DNA from: an uncultured Acidobacteriota bacterium
GTDB lineage: Bacteria > Acidobacteriota > Thermoanaerobaculia > Thermoanaerobaculales > Sulfomarinibacteraceae
NCBI GenBank assembly: GCA_963712805.1
Contig: CAVQJV010000062.1
Span: 14,157 to 78,156 of the forward strand
DNA length: 64,000 nt
Direction: 5' to 3'
Shown: positions 5,166 through 50,515 of the stretch, piece after piece
How positions within the stretch are numbered: position 1 is the stretch's first letter
Layout of the letters: each line of letters begins with the position of its first letter
Program-made: the position numbers and the translations under genes
Notes under the pieces: generated by a model
Database searches by the model: none
Told to the model about the DNA's origin: nothing
The model's input: only the letters and a program-made list of their open reading frames with translations

Positions 5166-6037
5166 ATGAAAATTCTGATATCTGACGCTTTTGATCCGCC
5201 CCTGCCCGAGAAACTCACCGCGTTTGGTGAGGTCACCGAGGACAAGGACCAACTCGCCGAGATGGATGTCGTGCTGGTCGAAGACCAAGTGCGGGACTAT
5301 ATCGATCAAGCAACGAATCTGCGACTTATCATCAGAGGTGGAGTGGGTCTCGACAACATCGATGTCGAGTACGCGCGGTCAAAAGGCGTTCAAGTCTTCA
5401 ACACCGCCGAGGCGTCGGCGGTGGGCGCGGCCGAGCTCGCCTTCGCGCTCATGATTTCGGTCCCCACCCGTCTGGTCGAAGGCCACCTCGGCATGACCAG
5501 GAAAGAGTGGCTCAAAGGTTTCAAACGGACCAAGTCATGGGTAAGACCCCTCGGGCTCTTCGGCGCCGGAAACATCGGCACCGAACTCGCTCGCCGCCGC
5601 ATCGCCTTCGGGATGCGAGTGATCGCCTACGACCCCTTCCTCAAGAGCCACGAGGCGGTGGATCTGGTCAGCATGGAGGAACTCCTCACCGAGTCCGACT
5701 ACATGTCGCTTCACGTACCGCTCACCGACGAAACCCGAGGAATGATCGACACCGAGACCATCGGTCGGATGAAGGACGGTGTGGTGATCGTCAACACCTC
5801 TCGCGCTCTATGTCAACGAAGTCGATATGAAGGCCGCGCAAATACGGCGCGGTGCGCGCCTACGCCACGGATGTCTTCATGTCGGACCCGCCGCCGGACG
5901 ACTGTCCTCTCTACGACGCACCCCAAACATCATCATCGTCCCGCACCTGGGAGCATCATCAAAGAAACATGCTCCGTATCGGCGATGTCGTCGTACGGAT
6001 CCTCGAAGATTTCCTACCAACGACACTTTGAACTTGA
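5166..6037 (+). CDS. serA: D-3-phosphoglycerate dehydrogenase (short form, frameshifted)
   Basis: IIRGGVGLDNIDV, GLFGAGNIG NAD motif, SLHVPLTDETRGMI, IVNTSR, PHLGAS; lies between DUF1015 and serC. Confidence 0.8.
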
Positions 6038-15077: not shown

Positions 15078-16348
15078 GTGACCCGTCTGCTGCCGGGGCC
15101 GGTGAGCGGGATTGCGGCCGCGGTGCGGGTTCCGACCTCCAAGAGCCTGACCAACAGGGCGCTGATCGCGTCGGCCGCAGCCGGCGGCGGCTGCATCCAC
15201 CGCCCCCTCGACTGCGATGATACGAGGCTTCTTGCCGGCGCCCTGGGTCAGGCGGGCTGGCCGGTCGCCTGGCAGGATGAGATCCACATCTCTCCTCGGA
15301 GACCGGTGCCGGAGGCGGCGGTGAATCTCGGCAACTCGGGAACCGGAGCCCGGCTCATTCTCGGTCTGCTGGCGTGCGTCTCCGGGCGATTTCGAGTCGA
15401 TGGAACCAGCCGCCTCCGGGAGCGACCGATGCTGCCGCTCGTCGAGGCCCTCACGGCGCTCGGTGCGGAAATCTGCAGCCGCGGCGGTTTCCTGCCGGTC
15501 GATCTCGTCGGCGGCCGACTGGTTGGAGGTCGCCTGCAGCTTCGTCCCGGGGTTTCATCGCAGTTCGTCTCCTCCCTCCTGCTCGCAGGGCCCCTCATGA
15601 CAAACGGTCTCGTGCTCGAGGTCATTGGTCCCGTGCCTTCACGGCCCTATCTGGATCTCACCCGTGACGTGATGGTGGATTTCGGCGCGTCGATCATCAG
15701 GGACGAGTCGGATCGCTGGAGGGTCGAACCGGGGGGCCTACGACCGACCACCTATCTCGTCGAGGGCGACTGGTCCGCCATGGCCTTTGCGGCGGCGGCG
15801 GTGGCGGCGGTCGGGGGCTCGGTGACGATCGGACCGCTTTCCTCGACGAGTTCCCAGGGTGACCGCGCGATCTGCGCGATTCTCGAGCGCGCCGGACTCG
15901 AACTCGAGTTTTCGGGGGAGGATCTCGAGATTTCGGGGCGCATGACCCGGCCGTTCGAGGCGGATCTCACGGCAACTCCTGATCTCTTCCCGGCCCTGGT
16001 CGTGGTGGCGGCCGCCGGCCCCGCAGGATCGGTGTTGACCGGGATCGAGCATCTCAAGCACAAAGAGAGCGACCGTTTGACGGTGATGGTGGAAAATCTC
16101 GGTCGGCTCGGCGCGGTCTTCGATCTCGGTCCCAGATCTCTCGTAGTTCGCAAGGGCATCGAGCGGAATCACCCGGGGGTCATCAGGGTGACCGCCGCGG
16201 ACGACCACCGCGTCGCCATGGCCATGGCGGTTGCGGCCCTCGCCGCCGGTGAACTCGAACTCGATGACGGCGGCTGTGTCGGAAAGTCCTTTCCGGAGTT
16301 CTGGAAGATGTGGGACACACTGGTTGATGGGGGAGGGAGGCGAGATGA
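15078..16348 (+). CDS. aroA: 3-phosphoshikimate 1-carboxyvinyltransferase (EPSP synthase)
   Basis: PTSKSLTNRAL, LGNSGTGAR, LRERPM, SSQFVSSLL, KESDRL, DDHRVAMA, KSFPEFW; the ORF track runs on into the next gene through a probable frameshift. Confidence 0.92.
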
Positions 16349-19300
16349 ACCCGCCCTCGCCGCGGTCGCTCCTCGTCGAGCACCCGGCGTTGCCCAGCCG
16401 TTCGAGTCAACTGATGCCGATCCGAGGGCTGGTCCCATTGAGGTCTCTCGGTCACGTCGATCGCTACCGGCCGCGGTCCAGTTGGTGGCGGTCACCGCGT
16501 TGCTCGCCGACTTCGAACTCTGGCCGGGGCGGTGGGCGCTGCGCCGCGCCATGGTCGAGATCGACCGATGACGGACCGCGGGTGCTGCTCCCGTCCCTGC
16601 CGGTGTCGCTTTCACGGATCTGGTCGAAGCTGGGAGGCGGCGACCCGGCGGCGGAACGAACCCGGACCGCGGTGCTGAGCACCATTTCCGAGGCGACCGG
16701 GATCGATCTGAAAGGGCGTGGCACGGTGGGGTTCGAGACCGGTTTCTTTCCTCGACGGGGTCCTCGCGGGATGGCTCGGTGAGCTCGATCTGCCCCTCGA
16801 TGCAGCAACCGCGCGTTCGTTGTGGATGCTGCGGTGGTCGCTGCCGACCTGTCCTGAGGCCGGAGACACGAGGTTTCTCGCGATTGCCGACGCCGCGACT
16901 CGCCGACGGATCGGTGTGGCGATGTGGGCCGCGGCGCATCGCCGCGGGTACGCGGCGAGCTTTGAGATCGTCGGCGCCGATGGCGCGGTCGAGGAGATGT
17001 CGGGGATCCGGGGGGCGGTGGAGTTCGAATTCTGGCGGGGGAGTTCGGCGACCGAATCCTCGCATCGCTCATGGATCGAGACGGCAACCTCGATGGAAGC
17101 GCGGTGGCCCTCGGTCGATTTCCCGAGGGGTGGAACCCGGCACCGGCGCCGGTCTTTCATCTCGATCGTCTTCCGGTCCACCTCACGATAGCGGGTCTCT
17201 CACCGGCGCAGAAGCTGCGTTGGATTGAAGAGCGGAACGGACGATTCAACCCGTTTTCCTCAGCCGATCGCCGGTGGCTCACCGGTTGCGCCGCAGAGCT
17301 CTTTTCCGGGTCCCGTCGGCGCACGAGCGCGAGGTTCCGGGACCTCGTCCACGTCGCCGGGTTGGCTCCGGATGGCGTGCCGGTCCCGAGCGCCCTCGAG
17401 ATGGCTGGAGTCGGCGAGGATGATCTCGAAGCGGCCGCGTCAGGATCGTGCCGTGGTCCTCCGTCACGGGTGTGTCACGGTTCCCGAGCCGCGGCCGTTG
17501 ACCATCGACCCTCGTCACGCCGAGGTGGCCCGGTTCTTCGACGAGGAAGATCCCAGGAGGCTGCTGCACTCAGCGCTCGCCGACGGCAACACCGGAGAGC
17601 TCCTCGCGTGGGCGCGGGCTCGACTGGACAATCTCGACGCAGCGGCTGTCAGAGGGTTGCTGACCGGATTGGAGACCGGCGCCCTCGGGCCCGGGGTTCA
17701 GGCGGCTTTGGCCGAGGCGTGTCTCTGCCTGGCCGATATCCACGGGGCCCGTCGAGCGTTGAACGGGTTGAACGACGAGATCGCGCGGCCGTGGGCGAAT
17801 TGGCTTCGCCTCATGGATCGACCGCCCGAACTCGAGGTCGAGATTCCGCATCCCGTGGATCTTCGTCAGGCTCCTCGCGCCTGCGCCGAGATCGCTCTCG
17901 TGAGCGTCAGACGAGCGCTGTGGTGGAAGACCGAATCCGCCGAGGAGGCGCTGGAACTCGTGCACGCCTGCTTGGCCTGTCTCAACGGTACGGCTCGGCG
18001 ATGGGTGGAGATCAAACTGACCGCTCTGGTCGAGCCCGAGCGGCTGGCCGATGCCGGTTGGCGCCGGGAAATGACCGGAGGCCACCCCGAACTCGTTGGT
18101 CTGATCCTCTTCGAGAGATCGCTCAGAGCGATGTTCGAAGAGCAGTTCAAGCGCGCGAACCGCCTTCTCAGGAGAGTGATGGCGGCGGAACGCGCCCCGG
18201 GAAGATTGGCCCTCATGCAGGTCAACCTCGGCACCCTCGAGGCCGACGCCGGTCACCACCAGGTGGCGGAAGCGTTGACCCTTGGCGCGTTTCGGCTTTT
18301 TCAGGCGGCCGGATTCCGGCATCGCCTCTGGGATGCCCTGCACAATTTGGCCGTGATGGACATCGATCAGCTTCGTGTGGAACGGGCGAGCGCCCGGCTC
18401 GACGCGGTTGCTGAAGCCCAGCACACCCTGTTTGTCGAGATCGAGCGCAGCCGATTGGCATTGGCGGTCGGGGATCTCGATCTCTTTCGATCTCGGCTCC
18501 GAGGATTGCCGTCGATGGACGACCTCTCGAATCCGCAGATCATCCAGGCCCTGTCGTTTCTCAAAGGGGTGGAGGCGTTGTTTTTTTCCTCGGCCGAAGC
18601 GGCGGCGGCGCTGTTGCGAGCCGGGGGACAGGAGGGCCTGGTCTGGCTTGAACTGGCTGACGCCATCGACCGACGAGACGACCGATCGACCGGATCCCAC
18701 AGCGACGGGTGGGGGGTACGACGCGCCGCGTTCCTGGTGCGCGTCAGCCGCGAGAGCCCATCGGTTCGAGAACTGGACGAGTTGATCAACGAGCCTCTCG
18801 ATCATCGCGAGGCCCTCGCGGTGACGCTGTGTGCACAGCTCGCTTGTCGGCCGGGGTGGCCCGGGCCCGACCTCAGGACGCGTGCGGCGGTCGTTCTTGC
18901 CGGCCGCGGGCTGACGGGTTGGGCCGCGCGGATCAGGTGGGGGAGTTCCGAGGTGGAGGCGTTGCTTCAGAACTTCGTTCGGTTGCTGAGAACTCATGAT
19001 TCGGGGCAGGACGTCGATGGCGTCCTCGAGGGTGTGCTTTCGCAGTTCGGCGTGACCGGGCTCGTTGTTCGGATGGTGGATCGGGATTGCGAACTCTTGC
19101 GCATCGGCACCGGCTGGTCGGCCAGCGGCGAAGTCCGCGGTTCGCTCGAAGTGGTTCCCCTGGGTTCGGAACCGATCCGAGGATCGGCATGGACTCTTCT
19201 CTGCGATCTCCTGGAACTCATGATCCCGGTCGCCAGAACCCCCGAGATGAGGGTCGATCGCAGCGAAGTTCGCATTGACGGCTCCTCTCGCGGGATCGAG

Positions 19301-20182
19301 CAGTTGCGGCAGGATGTGCGGCTCCATGCAGGACCCGGATATGCCGTGCTCGTGCACGGTGAGACCGGGTCCGGCAAGGAAGTCGTCGCCAGGGAACTCC
19401 ACCGGCTTTCCGGGCGGAAGGGAGAGTTGGTGTCGGTCAACATCGCCGCGATCCCGATCAACCTTCTCGAAGCGGAACTCTTCGGTTCGGTGAAGGGAGC
19501 CTTCACCGGTGCGGAACGGTCTCGAGGGGGTCTGGTGGCGGCGGCCGATGGTGGCACTCTTTTTCTCGACGAGGTCGGGGATCTCGATCTTGCGTTGCAG
19601 GTCAAGCTTCTTCGTTTTCTCGAGTCGGGCGAGGTCCGGCCGGTTGGTTCCGATCGGACCAGGGTGATGGATGTTCGAGTCGTCTGCGCCACCCATCGGA
19701 AGCTCGACCGTCTCGTTCGGGAGGGTCGGTTCCGGGGCGATCTCTTCTTCCGGATCGCGGTCGCCAAGATCCTCGTCCCGCCGTTGCGGGAACGCGTCGA
19801 GGACATTTTGATGTTGCGGTCGATTTTCGAACACGAAGCGTCGCATCGGCACGGGCTACAGGTGTCGAAATGGAGCGTCGCAGCCGAGCGTTGGCTGCTC
19901 AACCACCGATGGCCGGGCAATGTCCGGGAACTCAAGCACACCGTCGAGGTCGCCATGGCGCGAGCTGGTGGGGAGGCGATTCGACCGGAGCACCTTCCCT
20001 TGACCGAGCAGCCGACCGCGCTGCGTGGAACCTGGGAGAGCACGGTCGGCGATTTCAAACGTCGCTTCTTGACCGAGGTCCTGTCCCGCCACAAGGGGAA
20101 TCGAAGCGCCGCCGCAAGGGAACTCGGCATCTCACGCCAGGCGCTGCTTTATCAAATCAGGAAACTCGGGCTCGGAGCCTGA
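16345..20182 (+). CDS. Very large sigma-54 enhancer-binding protein: divergent N-terminal region, TPR-like helices, AAA+ domain and Fis HTH (N-terminal part frameshifted)
   Basis: Walker [68 protein letters not shown]; 985 aa uninterrupted from 17225. Confidence 0.85.
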
Positions 20183-20299
20183 TCGCATCCTCTGGGTTTC
20201 GGTTTGTCCTCCGATCGCCCGCGCGGTCTGTGGGCACAGGGACAAGCTCGTTGGCATTGTGACGCCTGAGGTCCAGCCTGCAGCGCCGATATGCGGGAC

Positions 20300-20327
20300 A
20301 AAAAAGATGCGGACCGTGCGGTCCGCA
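20300..20327 (-). terminator. Intrinsic terminator of the putative sRNA
   Basis: Minus strand TGCGGACC-GCAC-GGTCCGCA-TC-TTTTTT. Confidence 0.85.
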
Positions 20328-20379
20328 GGAGGAAGGAGGAGGTATGATGCGTTTACCAGGTCGTTGTGTGCCCGGCTAT
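20300..20379 (-). ncRNA. Putative sigma-54-dependent small RNA (~80 nt) with a CU-rich anti-SD seed
   Basis: Consensus -24/-12 promoter at 20390-20406, 5' hairpin CCGGG/CCUGG, single-stranded ACCUCCUCCUUCCUCC, then an 8-bp terminator and U6; no ORF within the predicted transcript. Confidence 0.7.
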
Positions 20380-20389
20380 CTTTACAACT

Positions 20390-20406
20390 AGCAAGCATCG
20401 TGCCAA
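20390..20406 (-). promoter_or_regulatory. Sigma-54 (-24/-12) promoter
   Basis: Minus strand TTGGCACGATGCTTGCT matches TGGCAC-N5-TTGCW exactly. Confidence 0.85.
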
Positions 20407-20426
20407 CATTCCAAGCGGGGAAGAAA

Positions 20427-21347
20427 TTGCTGGTTGGTCAGCGAGACAAATTGGAATTCGGTCTTCGAGAGTTGCGCCGAAATGCGGACGTGGAACTTCA
20501 CGAAAGGGTGGATCTGCGCGCCTGGACGTGTCTCGGCGTCGGCGGCGTCGCAACCCTGGTTGTGCGCTGTCACAACGCATCCTCGGTGGCTGAGACCCTC
20601 AACCTGGCTGCTTCGCACGGATTGGGCTGGTTGGTGCTGGGAAGCGGCTCACGGATCATCGCACCGGACAGTGGGATCCGCGTCCCGGTGGTGAGTGCAA
20701 CCGGGGAGCTCGCGCGCTGGAAGGTGGAGGTGGACGGAATCGAGGCAGGCGCTGGTGCCAACTTGGCACAGGTGTGCCGGGCCGCTCGTCGCGCCGGGCT
20801 TTCCGGGCTGGAGTCCCTCGATTCCAGGGACCACAGCGTCGGCGGAGTGATCCGAGCCGCCATCGACGGGGTGGTCGATCTCGGGAGTGTGCTGGACTGG
20901 ATCGATCTCCAAGCTCCGGGCTGCGGACCGCAGCGGTGGCACGCGACCGACGATGAATCCATTCCCGATCGGCGGCAGATTCACCGCAAGGTCGTCACCA
21001 GGATCCGGTTTCGCCTTCGACCGTTTCCGGTGGTCAGGATCCTCCCTGGCACCCTGAGATCGATCCGAAGCCGGGCCCTGCGTTCGACGGGTCCGATCTT
21101 CCTCGACTCCCAGGATGCCACGGCGGCCGATCTCCTCGCCGAGGCCGGGTGCCGCAATCTGACGGTCGGTGGAGTTCGAATCGGCGGCAACGGGGGCAAC
21201 GACCTCATCGCCGGGCGATCGGCCACAGCCGGGGATGTGCTGGATCTCTGCCGCCGCGCCCGCGATCGGGTCGCCGCCGCCACCGGCGTGGAACTGATTT
21301 CGGCGCTGGTCTTTGTCGACGACGACGGGCTGGAAACCACCCTATGA
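20427..21347 (+). CDS. MurB-fold FAD-binding protein, divergent paralogue lacking catalytic motifs
   Basis: MurB layout recognisable (L..WT.LGVGG.A, LVLGSGS, AGAG, GLSGLE, VGG, V...TGVEL), but the IPG/MNAGA, GS.FKNP, HANF and LE.EV motifs are replaced; TTG start after GGGGAAG. Confidence 0.7.
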   Translation: MLVGQRDKLEFGLRELRRNADVELHERVDLRAWTCLGVGGVATLVVRCHNASSVAETLNLAASHGLGWLVLGSGSRIIAPDSGIRVPVVSATGELARWKVEVDGIEAGAGANLAQVCRAARRAGLSGLESLDSRDHSVGGVIRAAIDGVVDLGSVLDWIDLQAPGCGPQRWHATDDESIPDRRQIHRKVVTRIRFRLRPFPVVRILPGTLRSIRSRALRSTGPIFLDSQDATAADLLAEAGCRNLTVGGVRIGGNGGNDLIAGRSATAGDVLDLCRRARDRVAAATGVELISALVFVDDDGLETTL

Positions 21348-35290: not shown

Positions 35291-36703
35291 ATGAGCGGCG
35301 CGGCGGCCAAGAAACCGAATCGGAGGAAATCGACCGTCAAGGTCGGCATGATCAGCCTCGGGTGCGCCAAGAACCTGGTCGACGGGGAGGTGATGTTGGG
35401 TCACCTCGAATCCGTCGGGATCCGGGTGACGGCCGATGCCCGCGAGGCCGATGTCGTCGTCGTCAATACCTGCGGTTTCATCACCGACGCGAAGCAGGAG
35501 TCCATCGACTCGATCCTCGAGGTCGTCGAGGCGAAGAACGCCGGTCGCGTTCGTCGGCTGGTGGTTTCGGGTTGCATGGCGCAGGCCTACGCCGAGGAAC
35601 TCAAAAAGGAGATCCCCGAGATCGACGCCTTCATCGGTCTCGACGAGCTCGAGCAGATCGCCGCTGCGGTGCGGGGGGAGCTCGAGGACCACATACCCGA
35701 TCAGCACGGCGCGGTCCGAATTTATGATCACGCCAACCCCCGTCTTCTCTCGACCAGCGGATACGCCTATCTCAAGGTCGCAGAAGGGTGCGGCAACCCG
35801 TGTTCGTTCTGCCATATCCCGAGGATGCGCGGGGACTTCCGATCGCGGGCCCTTGGCGATCTGGTCGCTGAGGCCCGGCGCATCGAGGCTGCTGGTGTTC
35901 GCGAGATCGTGCTCATCGCTCAGGACACCACCCGGTACGGCGAGGATCTCGGGATCGATCACGGTCTTCGACGGCTCGTCACCGCGCTTCTCGACGAGAC
36001 GGATCTACCGTGGATTCGCTTTCTCTACGCCTACCCGGCGACCCTCGATGAAGGTCTTTTCGAGCTCATGGCGGAGCACGATCGGTTTGTCTCCTACCTC
36101 GATATCCCGTTGCAGCACGCGAACCGGAAGGTCCTCAAGGCCATGAGGAGGGGCGGCGACGCCAAGAGCTACTCGGGTTTGATCGAACGGGCGCGAGCGA
36201 CAGTTCCCGATCTGGCATTGCGGACGACCTTTATCGTCGGTTTTCCCGGCGAGGGCGACGACGAACACCGGGAATTGTTGGATTTCATCAGAGAAACGCG
36301 GTTTGACCACCTCGGTGTCTTCAGTTATTCCTGGCAGGAGGAGAATCCCGGAGCGGAGCTCGGTGATCCGGTTCCCGAGGAGCTCAAGATCGAACGCCGC
36401 GCAGAGGCGCTCGAGGTGCAACAGTCTGTGTCCATGGAACAGAACCTCGCTCTCGTGGGTCAGACCCTCCCGGCGATGGTCGTCGGCCCGTTGGCCGAGA
36501 TGGAGTTGCTCACCGAAGCGCGATTGAAGCGCCAGGCTCCGGAGATCGACGGTCGACTGCTCATCAACGACGGCGTCGCCGCTGCCGGTTCGCTCATCGA
36601 GGCCGAGATCACGGAAGCGCATCCCTATGATCTGGTCGGAAAGGTTGTTCGGGTGGTGCGGGCACCGGCCGAGGCGCCGCGGATGCTTCCGGTGATCGGT
36701 TGA
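35291..36703 (+). CDS. rimO: Ribosomal protein S12 methylthiotransferase
   Basis: SLGCAKNLVD, NTCGFI, GC, AYLKVAEGCGNPCSFC, QAPEIDG. Confidence 0.95.
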   Translation: MSGAAAKKPNRRKSTVKVGMISLGCAKNLVDGEVMLGHLESVGIRVTADAREADVVVVNTCGFITDAKQESIDSILEVVEAKNAGRVRRLVVSGCMAQAYAEELKKEIPEIDAFIGLDELEQIAAAVRGELEDHIPDQHGAVRIYDHANPRLLSTSGYAYLKVAEGCGNPCSFCHIPRMRGDFRSRALGDLVAEARRIEAAGVREIVLIAQDTTRYGEDLGIDHGLRRLVTALLDETDLPWIRFLYAYPATLDEGLFELMAEHDRFVSYLDIPLQHANRKVLKAMRRGGDAKSYSGLIERARATVPDLALRTTFIVGFPGEGDDEHRELLDFIRETRFDHLGVFSYSWQEENPGAELGDPVPEELKIERRAEALEVQQSVSMEQNLALVGQTLPAMVVGPLAEMELLTEARLKRQAPEIDGRLLINDGVAAAGSLIEAEITEAHPYDLVGKVVRVVRAPAEAPRMLPVIG

Positions 36704-48973: not shown

Positions 48974-50515
48974 ATGGCGCTCGAGCAGAAGCTCCGTTTG
49001 AAGTTGGCGCAGCGGTTGGTGATGACGCCGTCGCTGCAACAGGCCATCAAGCTGCTCCAGCTGTCTCGGCTGGAGCTCGAGGAGACTCTGGCTCAGGAGA
49101 TCCTCGAGAACCCGGTCCTCGATGTCGAGGAATCGACGGAGGAGTCTGACGAGGCATCGGCCGCGGAGCTGGAAACCGACGATGGAGATTCGGCGGCCGC
49201 CGCTGCCGAGATCGAATTCGGGGAGGAATCGCTCGCCGACATTCCGACCGAAGCCGCCGACGGTGAAGATATTTTGCCATCGGCGGAGGAGGCCTACGAC
49301 GATATCGACGTCGAGGCGTTTTTTTCCGACTACCTCGCCGATCACCGACCGGAGGGTCCCTCGATGGCCGCCTCCGATCCCGGCAACGGGATCCCGCTGG
49401 AGAACGTCGTTTCGTCATCAGAAGGGCTCGGCGAACACCTGATATGGCAGCTCCACATGATGGACTGCGGCGAGCGAATCGTGAGGATCGCCGAGTACAT
49501 CGTCGGAAATCTGGACGAGGACGGGTACCTTCACGTATCTGACGAGGAGATTGCGTCAGGAACGGGCGCGCGGTCTGAAGAGGTGGTCGAGGCGCTCGAA
49601 GCGGTTCGTTCGCTTGATCCACCCGGGGTGGCGGCGAGAAGCCTGCAAGAGTGCTTTCTGATGCAGATCAACCTGCTCGTCGCGGTCGCCGACGACGATG
49701 CCGAAGCTGAATTGCTCAAGCGCGCGCAGATGGTGATTTCGGAATACTGGGACGATCTGCTGCACCAGCGGTGGGAGAAACTCGCGAACGCATGCGATTG
49801 CGAGATCGCCTCGTTCAAGGATCTCGTCTCGGTCATTCACCGACTCGAACCCAAACCCGGTCGCATCTTTCATCAGGAACGGAATCAGTACATCGAACCC
49901 GATGTCCATATTCGTAAGGTTGATGATGAATACACGATTCACCTCAACGATGACGGATTGCCTCGGTTACGGATCAATTCGAGGTACGCCCGGATGCTCG
50001 AAGGTGCGACGGTCGACCCTCAGGTGGCGGGTTATCTGCGCGAAAAAATGCGAAGCGCCGTCTGGTTGATGAAGAGCATCGACCAGCGTCAGCGCACGAT
50101 CTACAAGGTCGCGAACAGCATCGTGACCTTTCAACGGAATTTCCTCGACTTCGGGATTGAACACCTCAAACCCATGGTGCTCCGGCAGGTGGCGGAGGAC
50201 ATCGGAATGCACGAGTCCACCATCTCGAGGGTGGTGAGCAACAAGTACATGTACACGCCGCGCGGACTCTTTCCGATGAAATACTTCTTCCATTCCGGCG
50301 TCGACTCGGCGCGCGGGGAGAATATCTCTTCGCTGGTCGTCAAAGAGCGAATCAAAAAACTGGTCGAGGCGGAAGATCCGTCGCGGCCGTTGTCGGATTC
50401 GAAAATCATGCGAATGCTCCAGCGTGAAGGAATTCGCCTCGCGCGGAGGACTGTTGCTAAGTACCGAGAAGAGATGGCGATTCCGTCATCCGACAAACGC
50501 AAAAAGGTTTTCTGA
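48974..50515 (+). CDS. rpoN: RNA polymerase sigma-54 factor
   Basis: MTPSLQQAIKLLQL, HESTISR, RpoN box ARRTVAKYRE. Confidence 0.97.
   Translation: MALEQKLRLKLAQRLVMTPSLQQAIKLLQLSRLELEETLAQEILENPVLDVEESTEESDEASAAELETDDGDSAAAAAEIEFGEESLADIPTEAADGEDILPSAEEAYDDIDVEAFFSDYLADHRPEGPSMAASDPGNGIPLENVVSSSEGLGEHLIWQLHMMDCGERIVRIAEYIVGNLDEDGYLHVSDEEIASGTGARSEEVVEALEAVRSLDPPGVAARSLQECFLMQINLLVAVADDDAEAELLKRAQMVISEYWDDLLHQRWEKLANACDCEIASFKDLVSVIHRLEPKPGRIFHQERNQYIEPDVHIRKVDDEYTIHLNDDGLPRLRINSRYARMLEGATVDPQVAGYLREKMRSAVWLMKSIDQRQRTIYKVANSIVTFQRNFLDFGIEHLKPMVLRQVAEDIGMHESTISRVVSNKYMYTPRGLFPMKYFFHSGVDSARGENISSLVVKERIKKLVEAEDPSRPLSDSKIMRMLQREGIRLARRTVAKYREEMAIPSSDKRKKVF

Follow-up and report, generated by a model that had tools for sequence, protein, structure and literature searches.

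The DNA analysed here, hereafter the window, is a stretch of 64,000 nucleotides (nt) of contig CAVQJV010000062.1 in assembly GCA_963712805.1, which represents an uncultured bacterium of the phylum Acidobacteriota (denoted G000 below). On the minus strand of the window, between the 3' end of a gene for a sigma-54 enhancer-binding protein (the activator) and the start of murB, lies a predicted gene for a small RNA (sRNA), with a sigma-54 promoter of the -24/-12 type, a 5' hairpin, an unpaired linker rich in C and U, and an intrinsic terminator (Table 1). An earlier note, made from the letters of the window, had proposed an sRNA at this place, and all the parts that it listed are present on the minus strand: the exact promoter as well as the 5' hairpin, the unpaired CU tract and the 8-pair terminator with U6, these three having been recovered by folding and by a terminator scan.

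Table 1. Coordinates, in the window, of the sRNA, its parts and the genes connected with it
Feature	Position	Strand	Remarks
Sigma-54 (-24/-12) promoter TTGGCACGATGCTTGCT	20390-20406	-	GG of the -24 element at 20404-20403; GC of the -12 element at 20392-20391
Predicted sRNA, about 80 nt	20300-20379	-	start inferred from promoter geometry, end from the U-run
5' hairpin, GCCGGGC / G-CCUGGU	20355-20376	-	7 pairs, one bulge
Unpaired linker AAACGCAUCAUACCUCCUCCUUCCUCC, 27 nt	20328-20354	-	unpaired in the minimum-energy and centroid folds
Intrinsic terminator UGCGGACC-GCAC-GGUCCGCA, then U6	20300-20327	-	hairpin 20327-20308; U6 20305-20300
Sigma-54 enhancer-binding protein gene, intact 3' part (913 codons)	17438-20182	+	convergent with the sRNA; Pfam and NCBIfam hits
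Activator gene, 5' third (about 390 codons)	16274-17436	+	split over at least 4 frames; tblastn with a 1303-residue orthologue from the same genus
murB (UDP-N-acetylmuramate dehydrogenase)	20427-21347	+	divergent from the sRNA; Pfam MurB_C, FAD_binding_4
rpoN (sigma-54), the sigma factor required by the sRNA promoter	49007-50503	+	TIGR02395

The sigma-54 consensus TGGCAC-N5-TTGCW has a single exact match in the window, at 20405-20390, against a shuffle expectation of 0.01 (an exact match turned up in 1 of 100 shuffles of the window). Only the exact match is unusual because, with one mismatch allowed, the chance expectation reaches 0.84 per window. Counting the C at 20391 as position -12, transcription would start at about A20379. 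Direct reading of the resulting 80 nt found no ATG, GTG or TTG that opens a frame, in agreement with the earlier note, which had described the unit as free of open reading frames (ORFs). The RNA from 20379 to 20296 folds at -23.5 kcal/mol (z = -2.4), with 3 of 200 shuffles folding equally well, and the terminator scan independently called the 3' hairpin, with 8 pairs (6 of them G-C) and a loop of 4. The gene is present in a single copy in G000.

Between the two hairpins, the linker carries the unpaired tract ACCUCCUCCUUCCUCC. Its core, ACCUCCUCCUUC, occupies 20343-20332, and the full CU tract of 16 nt, ACCTCCTCCTTCCTCC, which we refer to as the seed, extends over 20343-20328 and is built of a repeated short motif (CCUCC, UCC, UUCC, UCC). 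The seed has no other match in the window at up to 2 mismatches (0.09 expected). The 16S rRNA of the same genus ends in ...GGAUCACCUCCUUUCU, the CCUCC core of which is present in the linker, so that the linker repeats the anti-Shine-Dalgarno (anti-SD) core and can pair with GGAGG in several registers as well as with longer tracts such as GAAGGAGGAGGU. A conserved CGCAU, located 3 nt upstream of the linker core, could additionally pair with AUG-CG.

These features are conserved in relatives. BLASTN with 131 nt found matches in 43 of 61 related genomes, including 31 of 36 from one family (f1) and 11 of 24 from a second (f2), and scanning a single genome from each of 185,579 species for the exact pattern yielded 45 loci. 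The titles of these records name Thermoanaerobaculales, Thermoanaerobaculia, Candidatus Sulfomarinibacter or Sulfomarinibacteraceae, Holophagae or Acidobacteriota, with three that differ (Methylomirabilota, Deltaproteobacteria and an uncultured bacterium); the two loci with deviating phylum or class labels (L043 and L062) we take to come from mislabelled bins because their gene order is the same as in the other loci. In a comparison of 75 loci, two of them truncated by contig ends, TGGCAY-N5-TTGC stands at a fixed distance from the seed in all 73 that have enough upstream DNA. Many of the 75 are the same genomes fetched twice, and the structural analysis was, accordingly, performed on the 48 distinct transcripts, the alignment of which led RNAalifold to recover both hairpins. 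Across the 15 pairs of this structure, 92.1% of the cells are paired, compared with 23-39% when the partners are slid by 1-3 columns, with two-sided changes in 7 of the 15. Shuffles gave a covariation score of 0.144 +/- 0.012, and none of 500 attained the 0.261 of the real alignment; this shuffle figure overstates the case because the sequences are related, and the slid controls are the fairer comparison. In the 5' hairpin, 4 of the 7 pairs changed on both sides, one of them occurring as GC, UA, CG and AU, and in the terminator hairpin, one pair is GC (23 sequences), AU (22) or GU (3), whereas the closing pair is found as UA, AU, GU and GC. All 48 sequences have a T-run after the terminator hairpin. 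While the stems drift, the linker columns are invariant or at least 90% conserved, with the core invariant or nearly so; the core is kept also in f2, where the 6 nt upstream of it differ, and is constant across both families although the flanking proteins are only 28-60% identical. The variable 6 nt of the linker occur as CAUCAU, CAUCCA or AAUUCU. Covariation in both stems together with conservation of the seed is what the earlier note had proposed to look for.

We built a covariance model (R1) from the transcript alone, with the promoter left out, and searched 151 genomes of the class, arranged by family. All 20 f1 genomes matched, one of them (G033) through the sibling RNA described below only, and so did 14 of the 16 f2 genomes. 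The search yielded 13 further copies, mostly in f2, with the linker CGCAUCCAACCUCCUCCUUC, and each of the 13 has the sigma-54 promoter upstream, an independent confirmation because R1 is blind to the promoter. Outside these two families, 4 of 114 genomes gave marginal hits (E 0.002-0.006, families f9 and f6); we do not count these as members given that the promoter is absent and three of them directly follow a stop codon, and the R1 search of the 151 genomes thus revealed no credible copy in the rest of the class. Two weak R1 hits in G000 itself (L077 and L078) have neither promoter nor seed and were set aside as ordinary terminators. One small f2 genome contains a second sigma-54-type copy elsewhere, with its own TGGCAC-N5-TTGC promoter (L114, G049:C15:15768-16046). 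Going by record titles, the sRNA family fills two families of a single order, Thermoanaerobaculales.

Covariance models of Rfam 15 (Qrr, Pxr, alpha-r14, Acido-1, Acido-Lenti-1 and the rest) gave no match, with zero hits at gathering score in the whole window and zero at E up to 10 in 20150-20550, and full-text searches of the literature, supplements being outside their scope, returned no description of an sRNA of such kind in Acidobacteriota. The earlier note had not recognised a named family and had called for the Rfam comparison; this is a new RNA family. Almost certainly, the sRNA is a real, previously undescribed gene with its own promoter, and we are nearly as confident that it is sigma-54-dependent.

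The resemblance to known systems is partial. Qrr1-5 and LuxO of Vibrio share with the present locus a sigma-54 sRNA linked to an activator gene, qrr1 adjoining luxO. The differences are that the sRNA described here has no Rfam match, Qrr included, carries a CU-rich anti-SD seed and comes from a different phylum, and that the N-terminal 1000 or so residues of its presumed activator, which lacks a receiver domain, are uncharacterised. In the part of the source cited here, Qrr sRNAs are described as having sigma-54 promoters that need an enhancer-binding protein and as repressing translation of their targets (bioRxiv 10.1101/2021.07.01.450815). NrsZ of Pseudomonas aeruginosa is presented, in the cited passages, as RpoN-dependent and located directly downstream of the genes of its activator system, NtrC (PMC9731577); there, the sRNA follows the activator genes, whereas here, it converges on the activator gene and has no Rfam match. 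The cuckoo/alpha-r14 sRNAs (CcsR/RSs0680, NfeR1) of Alphaproteobacteria carry, according to the sections consulted, the anti-SD motif CCUCCUCCC in the loops of 2-4 adjacent hairpins and, like the new family, are strongly conserved in sequence at a CU-rich anti-SD motif only, the stems diverging through compensatory changes (PMC4615179). In the sRNA described here, however, a single tract reading CCUCCUCCUUCCUCC is located in the linker, the hairpin loops have no such motif, and the promoter is of another type; with the CU tract in the linker rather than in loops, and with no Rfam match, we do not assign it to the cuckoo/alpha-r14 group. In Firmicutes, C-rich unpaired motifs of RsaE/RoxS and RNAIII pair with G-rich Shine-Dalgarno (SD) sequences, but these RNAs differ from the new sRNA in architecture, promoter and phylum, and no Rfam match links them to it.

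Starting from weak hits of R1 in other genera, a pattern search across 119 genomes of the order uncovered a sibling sRNA in 11 genomes from 9 genera of f1. It comprises a hairpin, the seed AACCUCCUCCUUCCU and a terminator (loci L112-L117, L121-L125, L128 and L130-L139; for example, L133 = G014:C5:43400-46419, with the seed at G014:C5:44900). In 10 of the 11 copies, it is preceded by TGTAACC-N16/17-CGTATCAAC, which we take to resemble promoters of extracytoplasmic function (ECF) sigma factors. At the five loci with flanks, the sibling sits between ArnT/PMT-like and aroE-like genes on the same strand, with no gene opposite. The sibling was not found in G000, an assembly only 82% complete. The same seed at another locus under another promoter would be hard to explain unless the seed acts in trans, and one seed under two promoter types amounts to a natural experiment, which argues that the functional unit is the seed and not the locus.

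The activator has the domains Sigma54_activat, AAA_lid_14 and a C-terminal HTH_8, with GAFTGA in its translation; the orthologues are about 1300 residues long, the N-terminal 1000 or so of which matched no Pfam or NCBIfam family, and a receiver domain was not among the domain hits. A feature search of a protein atlas with the N-terminal region gave leads resembling tetratricopeptide repeats at 0.77-0.78, below the meaningful level. Upstream of the broken part of the activator gene, the aroA ORF (15078-16571) continues in frame into some of the broken region. On the other side, murB, for which NCBIfam models match below their cut-offs, has an inferred TTG start at 20427 that follows GGGGAAG, with 21 nt separating it from the -24 element of the opposite strand. 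In the loci read by eye, murB starts at 10-30 nt from the -24 element, so that its promoter or 5' untranslated region (UTR) necessarily overlaps with either the promoter or the body of the sRNA gene. Across f1, the spacing between the seed and a conserved MurB residue is constant within about 3 nt, and a GGAAT just upstream of the -24 element is conserved. Among 64 distinct sigma-54-type loci, 47 have both murB divergent upstream and the activator convergent downstream, 2 have the activator only, 3 murB only and 7 neither, and in the remaining 5, the activator side is too short to judge. The convergence on the activator gene pointed out in the earlier note recurs in 49 of the 59 loci with enough flank for that side to be judged. 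At 7 relocated loci, the sRNA unit is intact, for example, beside a gene for a small signal-peptide protein or an acyl carrier protein. The rpoN product scores 453.8 bits against TIGR02395, above the cut-off (G000:C62:63163-64659), and the gene is located about 29 kb from the sRNA within the same window; hfq was found in G000 as well.

Taken together, these data incline us, with moderate confidence, towards an independent gene whose product, a regulatory RNA of about 80 nt, would work in trans through anti-SD pairing. Sigma-54 polymerase would transcribe the sRNA from the -24/-12 promoter when an enhancer-binding protein is active, and the latter would most likely be the large orphan activator encoded convergently downstream, which probably drives the sRNA. 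The U tail of the terminator hairpin could bind Hfq. The linker would pair with purine-rich SD regions and, in some mRNAs, CGCAU would pair with AUG-CG at the start codon; pairing at the ribosome-binding site (RBS) would block binding of the 30S subunit and lower translation. Such occlusion is the most likely action by analogy with the cuckoo/alpha-r14 RNAs and with NfeR1, which, in the cited part of the source, is activated by LsrB and silences ntrB by covering its RBS (PMC10746234).

Several lines of evidence weigh against this reading. To search for targets, we calculated duplex energies around 8-mer seeds, looked for contiguous matches at start codons and also used a crude gene set of 2083 starts from our own ORF caller. 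No outstanding mRNA target emerged genome-wide: there are many RBS matches of 9-11 nt, none an outlier. At likely gene starts, contiguous matches to the linker reach 10-11 nt at most, and strong SD sites are abundant in the genome. The RBS matches that the earlier note had named for serA and rimO do exist, as GAGGAGG ahead of the gene at 5166 and GGAGGAAG ahead of that at 35291, but these 7-8-nt matches are ordinary RBSs, common in this genome. The best candidate, a gene for a DUF3373 outer-membrane protein beside multihaem cytochromes, has GGAGGAG-N3-AUGAUGCG in all 3 genomes of the genus that have the gene; we rejected it as a conserved target because the two-part match is weak or absent in the other 27 loci read. 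Membrane proteins encoded at C53:184439-185704 and C3:248911-249966 of G000 are further candidate targets.

The case for the activator has weak points, too. At 10 of the 59 judgeable loci, the sRNA has no activator gene next to it; contrary to the earlier note, the activator-sRNA unit is thus not fully self-contained, although the link to the activator is conserved. A query with the N-terminal region of the activator found it in 17 of 20 f1 genomes and, by this query, in none of 16 from f2. In G000, the reading frame is broken in the 5' third of the gene, which reflects either faulty assembly or degeneration of the sensory end. Inspection of 62 upstream regions, visually and with a regular expression for palindromes, revealed no shared activator site, such sites being expected about 80-150 bp from the promoter; in the murB-adjacent loci, the upstream region is murB coding sequence, so that activator sites would be hidden, and repeats of the TGCC-N5-GGCA type occur upstream of the promoter in a few relocated loci only. 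With respect to expression, metatranscriptome contigs from 4 runs of 3 studies (estuary and marine) match 20098-20471 at 90-99% identity, but they carry neither strand, ends nor size, and some extend past the promoter; they neither prove an 80-nt RNA nor exclude plus-strand read-through, and DNA carry-over may be involved. Finally, on the plus strand, an ATG stands 1 nt past GGAGGAGGT in 39 of the 48 sequences, and part of the conservation could serve that strand.

As to what the targets might be, there are weak trends among the matches. Genes with hydrophobic N-termini, that is, for exported proteins, account for 20 of the 43 genes with a match of at least 9 nt compared to 495 of the 2040 others (Fisher p = 0.002), and, where the contiguous match spans 9 nt or more, the share of N-terminally hydrophobic proteins is 41-100% vs 25% overall. 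A similar trend is seen with general SD strength, and the enrichment nearly vanishes with duplex energies; we regard it as a lead only. AUGCG starts are found in 10.7% of the genes with such matches vs 2.8% of the others. In the cluster of the DUF3373 protein, a multihaem cytochrome and a further exported protein, which is outside the window (G000:C18:46269-52500; L153, L149 and L154), all three adjacent genes have 9-10-nt linker matches in their translation start regions. Elsewhere in G000, beyond the window, a purine-rich octamer, (GTGAGGAR)n, is repeated in tandem in several arrays, some of them followed by inverted copies (C18:179713-179744, C23:163081-163104, C23:178307-178338, C44:220583-220614, C55:1607-1686 and C59:64386-64425), and every GAGGAGGU unit in these arrays shows complementarity to the sRNA seed over 8 nt.

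The alternative that survives best, albeit as an unlikely one, is that the sRNA acts mainly in cis on murB or the activator, with its anti-SD look being secondary, through promoter-bound sigma-54 polymerase, convergent transcription or a fully complementary RNA. Either the 5' UTR of murB or transcripts reading through from the activator gene must traverse the sRNA gene on the other strand. In 51 of 64 loci, a divergent murB is the immediate neighbour, and both its closeness to the -24 element and its nearly fixed distance from the seed fit with such an arrangement. On the plus strand, the terminator hairpin is not followed by a U-run, making read-through possible, and the metatranscriptome contigs span the whole intergenic region, the promoter included. 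Moreover, a scan of 20100-20600 found no separate sigma-70-type promoter; a weak TTTACA-N17-CAACAT on the plus strand was noticed there by eye only. However, a pure antisense pair needs no invariant sequence because both strands change together, and yet the linker core is fixed across the order while the stems drift. The unit is also intact without an adjacent murB in 13 of the 64 loci, 7 of which lack the activator, too, and in the sibling sRNA, the seed is preserved where no gene lies opposite.

We consider it improbable that the sRNA titrates a protein, with the CU tract serving as a binding surface for a protein that recognises pyrimidines, for example, ribosomal protein S1 or one with a KH domain. 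The lack of a standout mRNA target and the composition of the seed from repeated short motifs would fit this scheme. CrcZ and CsrB are sponge RNAs of this kind, but known sponges have many copies of the motif in a longer RNA as opposed to the single 16-nt tract found here, and this tract is an exact match to the anti-SD core at the 3' end of 16S rRNA, which makes SD pairing the simplest explanation.

Slightly less probable still is the possibility that the conserved element serves the plus strand, as an RBS for a short leader ORF (20344-20391) or a standby site upstream of murB, with the minus-strand features being incidental. Opposite the seed, the plus strand reads GGAGGAAGGAGGAGGU-AUG-AUG, a strong RBS-like tract at the head of a 15-codon frame with the peptide MMRLPGRCVPGYLYN; apart from the sequences with the nearby ATG mentioned above, f2 reads GGAGGTTGGATG, and the remaining clade has TTG 8 nt downstream. 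Nevertheless, the peptide is not conserved (close relatives read MMRLPGRCVPG, MMRYQVVVCPA and MMSCTRSLCAR) and, because single-base indels shift the frame between close relatives, this is not a conserved coding sequence; the sibling RNA shares the seed but has, on that strand, neither an ATG nor a gene downstream; and the constant sigma-54 promoter, as well as the U-run, which follows a G+C-rich hairpin on the minus strand only, would remain unexplained. The pairs themselves favour the minus strand: among 720 pair cells in the 48 sequences, there are 60 G-U against 19 A-C or C-A on the minus-strand reading, and the G-U cells would be A-C mismatches on the plus strand. Thus, the position of the promoter, the position of the U-run and the excess of G-U all support the minus strand.

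Within the trans-acting reading, a broader scheme can be envisaged, which we put forward as speculative and rather doubtful: a two-input circuit of two sRNAs with a common seed that duplicates the tail of the 16S rRNA, one fired by the giant orphan sigma-54 activator and the other by a sigma factor of the ECF type. Acting together, they would stop the translation of envelope proteins that are exported or respiratory, a scheme supported by the weak trends among the matches noted above. Its targets may be mRNAs that combine an extended GGAGG tract with AUG-CG, that is, Met-Arg starts of signal peptides. The sigma-54 copy, interlocked with the murB promoter, may further tie the response to the synthesis of cell-wall precursors. 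If the envelope and respiratory targets are true, the system would be a counterpart, in another phylum, of the enterobacterial sigma-E-dependent sRNAs.

The Thermoanaerobaculales are known almost only from metagenome-assembled genomes of sediments and waters. In this order, the sRNA family is well defined through its 64 distinct loci, covariance model, promoter class and likely activator, and could enter Rfam and be used to annotate the genomes. By way of this family, sigma-54 signalling through an activator of about 1300 residues, the N-terminal 1000 or so of which match no known domain, also becomes approachable.

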